A stretch of DNA of 32,000 nucleotides from Candidatus Saccharimonadota bacterium (GCA_039920285.1 JBDSDX010000001.1:630001-662000), one strand, 5' to 3'; shown: positions 23,195 through 24,887, counted from the stretch's first letter. Numbers and translations: made by a program. Notes: generated by a model not told the origin, from the sequence alone.

Positions 23195-24589
23195 TTAGGC
23201 TTTCTTCTTTGAATCAGTCTTAAACTTTTCGCTAAGGTTACCGAATACCATATAGAACCAGTCTTCAGGTTTGTCGTCGTATTTACCGGCCAAAATGTCA
23301 GCGAAGTCACGAATCGTGTCTTCGAGTTTGACGTATGTTCCTGGGTTTCCCGTAAACTTCTCAGCGACATAGAATGGTTGTGACAAGTACCGTTGAATAC
23401 GACGCGCACGAGCAACTGTTTGCTTCTGGTCGTCAGACAATTCTTCCATACCAAGGATCGCGATGATATCTTGAAGTTCTTTGTACTGTTGCAAGACCCG
23501 TTGGACTTCGCGAGCGACGCGGTAGTGTTCAGCACTAACAACTTCTGGGTCAAGGCTCGTTGAACTTGAAGCGAGGACGTCGACAGCTGGATAAATACCA
23601 ATTTCAGTCAATGCACGACTCATAACGATCGTTGCATCGAGGTGAGCAAAAGCAGTTGCAGGGGCTGGGTCAGTTAAGTCATCCGCAGGAACGAAGATCG
23701 CCTGGACAGAGGTGATTGAACCTTTTTTCGTACTCGTAATACGTTCTTGAAGGCCACCCATTTCCTCTTGGAGGTTTGGTTGATATCCGACAGCTGAAGG
23801 GAGTCGTCCTAAAAGGGCTGAGACTTCGGCACCAGCTTGGGTGAAGCGGAAGATATTGTCGATGAAAAGCAGGACATCTTTACCATCGTCACGGAATGAT
23901 TCTGCCATGGCGAGCGCTGAAAGAGCGACACGCAGACGCGCTCCAGGTGGTTCGTTCATCTGACCAAAGACAAGGGAGGTTTTGGCAAGCACGCCCGCTT
24001 CTTCCATTTCGTAGTACAGGTCATTACCTTCACGTGTTCGTTCGCCAACACCTGCGAAGACAGAGTTACCAGAGTGGAACTTTGCGATGTTGTTGATGAG
24101 CTCGGTGATAAGGACGGTTTTACCGACACCAGCACCAGCGAAGAGACCGGCTTTACCACCCTTAATAAGTGGAGCGATGAGGTCGATAACCTTAATACCT
24201 GTTTCGAGGACTTCAGATTTGTTTGATTGTTCGTCAAGAGGAGGTGCTTGACGGTGGATAGATGCGCGCTTGGCAGTTGTTGGTTGTGGCAGGCCGTCGA
24301 TTGCTTCACCAACAACGTTGAACATACGTCCTTGCGTTTCTTCACCAACAGGAACGCTAATTGGTCCACCTGTTGCGGTGACTTCTTGGCCACGTTTCAG
24401 ACCGTCTGTATTTGCAAGGGCGATTGCACGGACCGTTTTCTCATCAAGGTGCTGAGCAACCTCAAGAGTCACCACACGTTTATCATGTTGAATCAAAAGT
24501 GCATCATAAATAGATGGGATTTTGCCATCAAACTCGACGTCCACCACGACGCCCACAATTTGTATAATTTTTCCTGTCGCTTTACTCAT
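23195..24589 (-). CDS. atpD: F1 ATP synthase beta subunit
   Basis: Walker A GAGVGKTV and a highly conserved beta-subunit sequence throughout. I prefer ATG 24589 ([10 protein letters not shown]), which is preceded by GGAGGA. Confidence 0.95.
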
Positions 24590-24887
24590 CTTGTCCTCCA
24601 TATTTCTCAACAAATTCCATTAATTCTTTAATCTGCTCTTTTGCCTTTACCACTGCTGCTCGTCTTTGTTCGTGTGTGACTTCGACGGTCAATTCTCCGA
24701 GTGCTCTTTGGAATGCAGCGTGGTGTTCTTCAGGGGTTGGCTCGCGGCCAAGTGCTTCCGGAAGTGTCGCCTCAACTTCACGGCTGGCTTCGAGTTGTCG
24801 GATCGGCCCAGGATAGGAAGGATCCGTCCAATTGAGCATTGGGATACGAAGCCCTTCAATTGGAGGTACTGTTTCAGAATTAATCAT
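24582..24887 (-). CDS. Hypothetical 101-aa acidic protein inserted between atpG and atpD
   Basis: [28 protein letters not shown]...[18 protein letters not shown]. Its ATG lies inside the last codons of atpG (8-nt overlap, ATGATTAA). Its stop overlaps the atpD ATG (8-nt overlap, ATGAGTAA). No TM helix and no family I recognise. Confidence 0.6.

Follow-up and report, generated by a model that had tools for sequence, protein, structure and literature searches.

The orfX locus

The F-type ATP synthase operon described here lies on the minus strand of a 32,000-nucleotide stretch of DNA (the window) from a Candidatus Saccharimonadota bacterium (GCA_039920285.1, JBDSDX010000001.1:630001-662000), and its genes run in the order atpI-like-B-E-F-H-A-G-orfX-D-C. 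We use the name orfX for an extra open reading frame (ORF) of 101 codons and a TAA stop, read from 24887 to 24582 (24582..24887, minus strand), which was recognized from its sequence, its translation and the presence of four homologues in the same position. Its upstream neighbour is atpG, encoding the F1 gamma subunit (24880..25749, minus strand; 289 amino acids (aa); PF00231, E=1.3e-86; TIGR01146), and its downstream neighbour is atpD, encoding the F1 beta subunit (23195..24589, minus strand; 464 aa; TIGR01039, E=3.5e-227). A preliminary description of this DNA had reported an additional 101-codon ORF between these two genes, overlapping both, and this is correct: each overlap measures 8 nucleotides (nt), and it need only be added that the ORF is on the minus strand.

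The two overlaps are of the same kind. On the minus strand atpG ends CTT CAT GAT TAA, and the ATG of orfX is contained in these last codons and the stop (ATGATTAA, 24880..24887, minus strand; spacing -8); an ATGAnTAA/TGA overlap at the orfX start is also present in L001, L010, L087 and L088, four loci of the survey reported below. At the other end, orfX finishes GGA GGA CAA GAT GAG TAA, and the atpD start falls within its last codon and stop (ATGAGTAA, 24582..24589, minus strand; again -8), an arrangement shared by all five lineages that carry the gene. The earlier claim that the last orfX codons hold both the atpD ATG and the atpD Shine-Dalgarno sequence could be verified: GGAGGA (24594..24599, minus strand) corresponds to the Gly-Gly of orfX codons 97-98 and stands 4 nt before the atpD ATG, and an equivalent GGAG(G/A)A is found in all orfX homologues as well as in relatives that have no insert. 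No structure is predicted in the RNA around the start of atpD. For orfX itself, a Shine-Dalgarno-like GAGG, to which the sequence suggests such a role, occurs 6 nt upstream of the ATG (24894..24897, minus strand) within the atpG codons for a conserved GVEAL, and the full GGAGG stands at the equivalent place in L001, L010, L087 and L088. A longer orfX beginning at a GTG (24908) is possible; all of the homologues begin at the ATG that overlaps the atpG stop, not at a longer GTG-type start.

As the preliminary description had also proposed, orfX is embedded in the atp operon. It has -8 overlaps to both neighbours, and its coding strand contains nothing that resembles a promoter or a terminator. 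Its G+C content is similar to that of the neighbouring operon genes. An 11-nt inverted repeat (24848-24897; 91% complementary) could pair the Shine-Dalgarno sequence and start of orfX with its codons 10-13 in a hairpin of predicted energy -21.3 kcal/mol (z=-2.1); this hairpin belongs to the window genome only and is absent from the four homologous lineages. A programmed +1 frameshift that would fuse orfX to beta was considered and rejected on inspection, there being no slippery codon before the stop.

Conservation of orfX

A search of 5.8 billion clustered proteins with the single sequence returned one relative of orfX, and an exhaustive HMMER search of 1.84 billion representatives returned two. 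A profile search of the clustered proteins then gave a family of five distinct sequences of 93-101 aa, and nothing beyond these five junction-resident sequences was found in either collection. The four homologous lineages are 42-59% identical to the window orfX and belong to Candidatus Microsaccharimonas. Every family member sits between atpG and atpD with 8-nt overlaps at each end (carrier loci L001-L006, L010, L087 and L088). In one public metagenome-assembled genome the gene is annotated, as a 'hypothetical protein' only.

Across the five lineages the DNA of orfX is 51-69% identical; the frame is open in all of them, and length differences and indels among the homologues are whole codons. 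Mean pairwise identity at codon positions 1, 2 and 3 is 0.63, 0.74 and 0.38, respectively, and 26 residues are invariant. The number of non-synonymous substitutions per site (dN) is 0.25-0.57, about five times that of atpG and atpD in the same comparisons, and the synonymous value (dS) is near, at or beyond saturation, giving dN/dS ratios of 0.02-0.25 (NG86, LWL85 and maximum likelihood). Six sampled contigs of one lineage differ by only one single-nucleotide polymorphism, which is synonymous. The preliminary description had looked to synteny and to dN/dS for a verdict on the ORF, and both speak in its favour: orfX is present in every relative with the same spacing, and ratios at or below 0.25 point to purifying selection and not to neutral evolution.

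None of the other five frames is as well conserved as the sense frame; conservation of antisense ORFs opposite orfX was looked for among the homologues and was not found, and an Rfam scan of orfX gave no match even at E values up to 1. When the interior of the window spacer was shuffled, a spanning frame stayed open in only 2% of cases, and this low rate, together with a frame that is open in five diverged lineages, disfavours a chance ORF. Judged by these patterns, orfX is a genuine protein-coding gene. Furthermore, since selection against stop codons alone cannot give the amino-acid conservation observed, the product probably has a function of its own.

Properties of the predicted product

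The product of orfX is 101 aa long with an isoelectric point of 4.89, and it is predicted to be a small, acidic, soluble protein of the cytosol. All nine of its prolines lie in residues 1-52. An AlphaFold2 model, built on an alignment of only four sequences and moderately confident (mean predicted local distance difference test score 75.5), places strands at residues 13-16 and 67-70 and helices at 28-46, 52-62 and 72-96, with an N-terminus of low confidence. The earlier picture of an acidic protein with a proline-rich N-terminal half and a helical C-terminal half is therefore a fair one. The modelled fold, with two strands and three helices, matched no known counterpart. Strongly conserved in the family are the motif LGREPTxEEH and several exposed charged residues.

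The preliminary description had recognized no known ATP synthase subunit or assembly factor in this protein, and the family libraries agree. When all five members were scanned against Pfam, no family of ATP-synthase or inhibitor proteins appeared among matches with E values as high as 5, and an NCBIfam scan of the window protein (E up to 1) gave no family at all. Families of the zeta/DUF1476, IF1 and Atp11/Atp12-like kind are missing from the Pfam matches of the five members; AtpTheta is possibly absent from the libraries. PHROGs and PADLOC scans produced nothing above threshold, and 23S_rRNA_IVP (PF05635), which will reappear below as an insert in other genomes, does not match orfX. The PDB includes complexes of F1 with its inhibitors. 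Foldseek comparison of the model with the PDB returned nothing below E=2, and a fold search of the PDB and BFVD together returned nothing below E=0.5. A pattern scan of IMG/VR viral contigs found no orfX homologue. The same kind of scan of JGI metagenome contigs found none among the matches listed, which is weak negative evidence, given that its first pattern, LGREPT.., resembles a sigma-factor motif and sigma factors are suspected to dominate those matches.

Two sub-threshold resemblances were followed up and rejected. A 24-residue stretch around LGREPTxEE matches Sigma70_r3 (PF04539) with at best 22.2 bits against a gathering cut-off of 25.3, in two of the five members and over positions 2-25 of the 78 in the profile. 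The same stretch matches a homing-endonuclease (HNH)-associated repeat, again below threshold, and profile searches of the PDB with orfX list many sigma-factor chains at E >= 0.05. Like region 3.0 of sigma-70 and the HNH-associated repeat, orfX has the LGREPTxEE helix-turn motif (helix-GRxPT-helix), but in comparison with the sigma domain only about 24 residues match, and the rest of the protein, its fold topology and its acidic charge do not fit a DNA-binding sigma domain. We regard these as matches at the level of a motif only, below curated cut-offs, and LGREPTxEE as a common helix-turn capping motif that is no evidence of homology. DUF1722 (PF08349, YbgA) scored 14-17 bits in four of the five members, against a gathering cut-off of 22.5 bits, and was likewise set aside when hhalign of the orfX family alignment against Escherichia coli YbgA gave a probability of 0.2%. 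orfX matches no known family or fold in the libraries searched.

Distribution of orfX among relatives

The closest species-level relatives of the window (L007, L008 and L009; atpG 91-93% identical) have no orfX. In its place is a 13-nt spacer, TAAGGAGAAtATGATG, a junction type that is shared with distant outgroups and other genera and is typical of the phylum, and these insert-free sister operons are otherwise identical in layout to that of the window. In a bootstrapped tree of AtpA+G+D+C (1207 columns), a clade of the six closest genomes is supported at 98-99%, and the window groups with the ORF-less L007 at 99%. Monophyly of the orfX carriers received 0% bootstrap support, and the carrier L087 falls outside the core clade, adjoining ORF-less genomes. 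Synonymous divergence (dS) reaches the same depth in orfX as in the genes on either side; orfX may therefore be old in the group and have been lost, or exchanged with an insert-free allele, several times.

Sliding-window identity near the junction gave no recombination footprint at this divergence, and a search for orfX remnants in the short spacers of relatives gave nothing beyond chance. Six alignment columns were candidates for F1 residues that co-vary with the presence of orfX, and none was clean across the outgroups. On the evidence of these operons, orfX appears dispensable for the ATP synthase and is not a general subunit of it.

In the three insert-free sister loci a GTG lies in the last atpG codons (AGT GAA TAA) and is in frame with atpD (L007:6855-6885, L008:1315-1345 and L009:6855-6885). 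With a junction reading GTG AAT AAG GAG AAT ATG ATG..., an N-terminally extended beta subunit is formally possible in these genomes.

Inserts between atpG and atpD across Saccharibacteria

The comparison took in the atp operons at 84 loci, in most cases a single locus for each species of Saccharibacteria. The atpG-atpD spacer exceeds 100 nt in 35 of the 84, followed by atpA-atpG (14 loci), atpD-atpC (10) and atpB-atpE (8); each other atp junction is expanded to this extent in 0-4 loci. The atpG-atpD inserts comprise at least 20 families with no detectable similarity to one another or to orfX, and they range from 13-codon mini-ORFs to enzyme-like proteins. A 23S_rRNA_IVP (PF05635) insert occupies eight loci (L050, E=3.5e-34, and seven related), one family of related inserts in four loci includes a nucleoside 2-deoxyribosyltransferase-like protein, and the remaining inserts are orphans. 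No nuclease domain was found in the larger inserts tested.

Despite this diversity most of the inserts have a common form. A single ORF spans 31 of the 41 atpG-atpD spacers of 40 nt or more, compared with 4.7 expected from shuffled interiors. These bridge ORFs begin on or at the atpG stop (-8, -4 or -1), and their ends fall on the atpD start or slightly ahead of it, as a rule with an overlap. The rule extends to spacers of 44-75 nt, which are bridged by mini-ORFs of 13-27 codons, and it applies also to expanded atpA-atpG spacers (11 of 16 bridged; 0.65 expected). The codons at the two edges are suited to such an arrangement. Gamma ends in Asn-Asp/Glu-stop or Lys-stop, and the corresponding codons, AAT GAN TAA or AAA TGA, hold an out-of-frame ATG; beta begins Met-Ser/Thr-Lys, and its codons, ATGAGTAA or ATGACTAA, hold TGA and TAA in the other two frames. 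The C-terminal endings GEYDE, GEDHE and GGQDE that unrelated ORFs have in common are the Shine-Dalgarno sequence and start of atpD read in another frame.

The deoxyribosyltransferase-like family (L052, L054, L055 (6867-7349) and L082 (1448-1834)) consists of proteins of 128-160 aa that lie between atpG and atpD and overlap both. The L082 protein matches Nuc_deoxyrib_tr (E=9e-7), and that of L052, which has no Pfam match, clusters with it by BLASTP. In these genomes the F1 gene cluster thus harbours a protein of an enzyme-like family. In another Microsaccharimonas species (L022:6866-7174) an unrelated bridge ORF of 102 aa stands at atpG-atpD, so that the slot has been filled independently within the same genus; in the same genome a second bridge ORF, of 75 aa, lies at atpA-atpG. 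The 23S_rRNA_IVP inserts are of a different kind. In loci that carry them the TAG stop of atpG lies within a short perfect hairpin (AAGTAGCnnnGCTACTT; L056:6860-6890, L077:6150-6180, L080:6860-6890 and L083:6860-6890), the inserted ORFs are without overlap coupling, and the atpA-atpG and atpB-atpE spacers are expanded too. This insert looks like an element of the intervening-sequence type, distinct from the bridge ORFs.

Discussion

We consider it reasonably probable that orfX is a lineage-restricted orphan protein gene, confined to a few Candidatus Microsaccharimonas lineages, that occupies a recurrently colonized and translationally coupled slot for bridge ORFs. The anatomy of the junction suggests how such a slot might work. 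orfX would be co-transcribed with the rest of the atp operon. Ribosomes that end gamma synthesis at UAA would restart at the orfX AUG, 5 nt upstream in the -8 overlap, assisted by the GAGG or GGAGG within the GVEAL codons of atpG. Translation of orfX would then carry them over the 290-nt insert to its stop, which overlaps the atpD AUG just past GGAGGA, and beta synthesis would stay coupled in spite of the insert. In this scheme the start signal would be a free by-product of the last gamma codons and the stop signals a by-product of the first beta codons, so that any DNA that lands and persists in the spacer would tend to become a single ORF overlapping both neighbours. orfX may be one such ORF whose product came under purifying selection, and its product would be made at a gamma-like dosage.

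The elements of this scheme have precedents. The spacings -8, -4 and -1 are the three that are enriched among overlapping prokaryotic gene pairs (PMC12548453), and pairs coupled in this way typically encode subunits of one complex (PMC12548453, PMC6728339). Both junctions of orfX resemble coupled pairs of the termination-reinitiation type (ATGA, TAATG/TGATG, NTGNNTGA), having a spacing of -8 in all five lineages. Among the remaining bridge ORFs at atpG-atpD the spacing is -8, -4 or -1, and the genes on either side likewise encode subunits of one complex. What differs from the classical pairs is that two predicted couplings are chained through an extra ORF that is not itself a subunit. Short ORFs that deliver ribosomes to a downstream gene have been proposed, with the ORFs of mycobacterial interspersed repetitive units (MIRUs) as a natural example (PMC12548453); the ORF of a MIRU insert overlaps the start of its neighbour, and the insertion thus hardly disturbs expression of the genes that follow (PMC12548453, which cites Supply et al., 1997). 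orfX resembles these in being an internal ORF that overlaps its flanking genes. However, MIRUs are a repeated and apparently mobile family, whereas the Saccharibacteria inserts are mutually unrelated and single-copy, no second copy of orfX turned up in the 32-kb window, the fetched loci or the protein collections, and orfX encodes a conserved protein of 93-101 aa under purifying selection. Mechanistically, the arrangement varies two known themes, translational coupling and the bridge ORF of MIRU type; the protein is an uncharacterized orphan.

The preliminary description had suggested that the product could be a lineage-specific accessory or inhibitory subunit of F1, and this proposal has fared less well than its other claims. 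On this view the product would act as zeta, IF1 or AtpTheta do, whether as an inhibitor, an accessory subunit or an assembly factor: it would attach to F1 through its flexible, proline-rich N-terminus and its helical body and so modulate the hydrolysis or the synthesis of ATP. The zeta protein of alpha-proteobacteria, mitochondrial IF1 and cyanobacterial AtpTheta are small, soluble, lineage-restricted regulators of F1 that combine a flexible N-terminal part with helices; none of them is known to be encoded between the genes for gamma and beta. orfX can be likened to them in size, solubility, lineage restriction and general build: the protein is soluble and acidic, its N-terminus is modelled with low confidence, and its C-terminal part is modelled as a long helix. 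It is also found solely between the gamma and beta genes, where it would be expressed with them at a fixed ratio, and it is under purifying selection with invariant residues of a surface type. Nevertheless, it has no sequence or fold similarity to these regulators, no ATP-synthase or inhibitor family was found for it in Pfam (five members) or NCBIfam (window protein), and its model has no structural match in the PDB. Sister lineages have the same operon without orfX, none of the six candidate columns gives a convincing co-varying F1 residue, and in other genomes this slot, overlaps included, is taken by unrelated proteins, among them an enzyme family. Because so many unrelated ORFs use the double-overlap architecture here, it says nothing specific about ATP synthase function, and the arguments from location and co-expression would apply equally to a deoxyribosyltransferase-like enzyme at the same site. 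We therefore regard a role in F1 as unlikely.

At the opposite extreme, orfX might be a translational relay only, its frame kept open to bring ribosomes to atpD and its peptide irrelevant. The bridge architecture is general and includes mini-ORFs of 13-27 codons, which could hardly be functional proteins, and ribosome delivery is just the coupling role proposed for short ORFs (PMC12548453). Yet selection against stop codons would not produce an identity of 0.74 at second positions against 0.38 at third, nor dN/dS values of 0.25 or less, nor 26 invariant residues across sequences 42-59% identical, and atpD has a strong, predicted unstructured ribosome-binding site of its own; we hold this explanation to be very improbable. 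That orfX is a degraded remnant or domesticated fragment of an insertion, such as a mobile, MIRU-like intercistronic element, a free-standing homing-endonuclease cassette or a piece of a sigma-factor gene, fits a junction that is an insertion hotspot between very conserved genes and would give some meaning to the sub-threshold matches of LGREPTxEE to Sigma70_r3 (22.2 versus 25.3 bits, two of five members) and to the homing-endonuclease-associated repeat. Against it, the former match is limited to positions 2-25 of a 78-position model and to a motif that commonly caps helices, no nuclease domain is present in those larger inserts that were tested, orfX is not flanked by terminal repeats beyond the ATGAnTAA overlaps, and there is no match among the viral contigs. 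A second copy was found neither in the 32-kb window nor in the fetched loci or the protein collections, the whole genomes of carriers not having been scanned. A remnant of this sort seems to us quite improbable. Finally, the small size of the family, and the fact that orfX is known from its sequence, would suit the view that the annotation is an artefact and that nothing is expressed from what is a chance ORF or a non-coding stretch; but a frame that is open in five lineages at 51-69% DNA identity, a coding-type pattern of substitution and the 2% of shuffles with an open frame make this hardly credible.

Several points also weigh against our preferred explanation, the lineage-restricted orphan in a recurrently colonized slot. 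The conserved LGREPTxEEH and the exposed charged residues imply a specific partner, which could be F1, and the family occurs only inside the F1 gene cluster. The loci surveyed are phylogenetically non-independent, so that the figure of 31 against 4.7 overstates the number of independent events, although at least 17 unrelated families contribute to it; and dense genomes favour overlaps for any inserted gene, which accounts for part of the pattern. Gain, loss or allele exchange by recombination may each explain the patchy distribution of orfX. The translational coupling of orfX to its neighbours, too, is one that we deduce from the arrangement of starts and stops.

A more far-reaching idea, which we put forward tentatively and think fairly unlikely as it stands, is that the spacer between the gamma and beta genes is an ORF trap or gene nursery, as is, less markedly, the one between alpha and gamma, and that orfX was born de novo in the former and matured into a folded, conserved protein. 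If this were so, the end of atpG would provide a start, the beginning of atpD would provide out-of-frame stops, and selection for coupling would keep inserts open and highly translated, continuously exposing new peptides to selection. The 13-codon mini-ORFs, the orphans of 50-100 codons and orfX would then be snapshots of one process.

Whatever its origin, the locus carries a caution for ATP synthase biology: as unrelated sequences use the same architecture, the presence in this phylum of an ORF locked by overlaps between the genes for gamma and beta is no evidence of a new subunit. For the ATP synthase itself the finding is a modest one. It points instead to a replicated pattern in a very conserved bacterial operon, in which a spacer has been recurrently colonized in a lineage of ultra-small genomes by inserts that are mostly single ORFs chained to both neighbours. 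Full-text literature searches brought up no account of a Saccharibacteria gene at the atpG-atpD junction, nor of such a hotspot, and the pattern is to that extent unreported. These operons offer a natural, replicated system for asking how coupling survives insertions and whether relay ORFs yield new proteins. Within our data set, orfX is the best candidate for a relay ORF that may have gained a function at the protein level.

Other features of the window

The remaining genes of the operon are all on the minus strand. It opens with the atpI-like gene (29282-29545; PF09527), followed in the ORF list by atpB, atpE, atpF and atpH, which lie between it and atpA (25752..27278), directly upstream of atpG; the last gene is atpC, for the F1 epsilon subunit (22764..23189; 141 aa; TIGR01216, E=6.6e-24). 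Gamma, beta, epsilon, delta, b and the AtpI-like protein all have strong Pfam or NCBIfam matches (including PF09527, PF00430 and PF00213), and atpB, atpE and atpA were identified from their position in the operon and from tblastn matches across loci. Two of the subunits are unusual. The delta subunit encoded by atpH (27289-27687, minus strand) is short (132 aa), and its match to the OSCP profile is confined to positions 58-170 of 172, so that much of the usual N-terminal domain appears to be missing. The C-terminus of epsilon (22764-22790, minus strand) is a poly-arginine tail, ...HRRRRRG, with NRRRRRR in L001, which is unusual for the inhibitory C-terminal domain.

Outside the operon, a 512-nt gap of 55% G+C between a UvrD-like helicase gene and dus contains a 51-codon alanine-rich ORF (19696-19851, plus strand), with GGGGGTGA in front of it and a G+C-rich hairpin (GGGAGGTGGC...GCCACCTCCC) after it; neither Pfam nor Rfam has a match for this ORF. 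Between atpC and dus (20981-22712, minus strand) are two genes, for a 322-aa protein with a weak MazG/PRA-PH-like match and for a 217-aa acyltransferase. In L001 dus follows atpC directly, so that this interval is another variable spot beside the operon. Directly upstream of the operon lies a gene for a 759-aa glycine-rich protein (29600-31879, minus strand; Gly_rich_2, E=1e-28), which brings the local G+C content up to about 59%.

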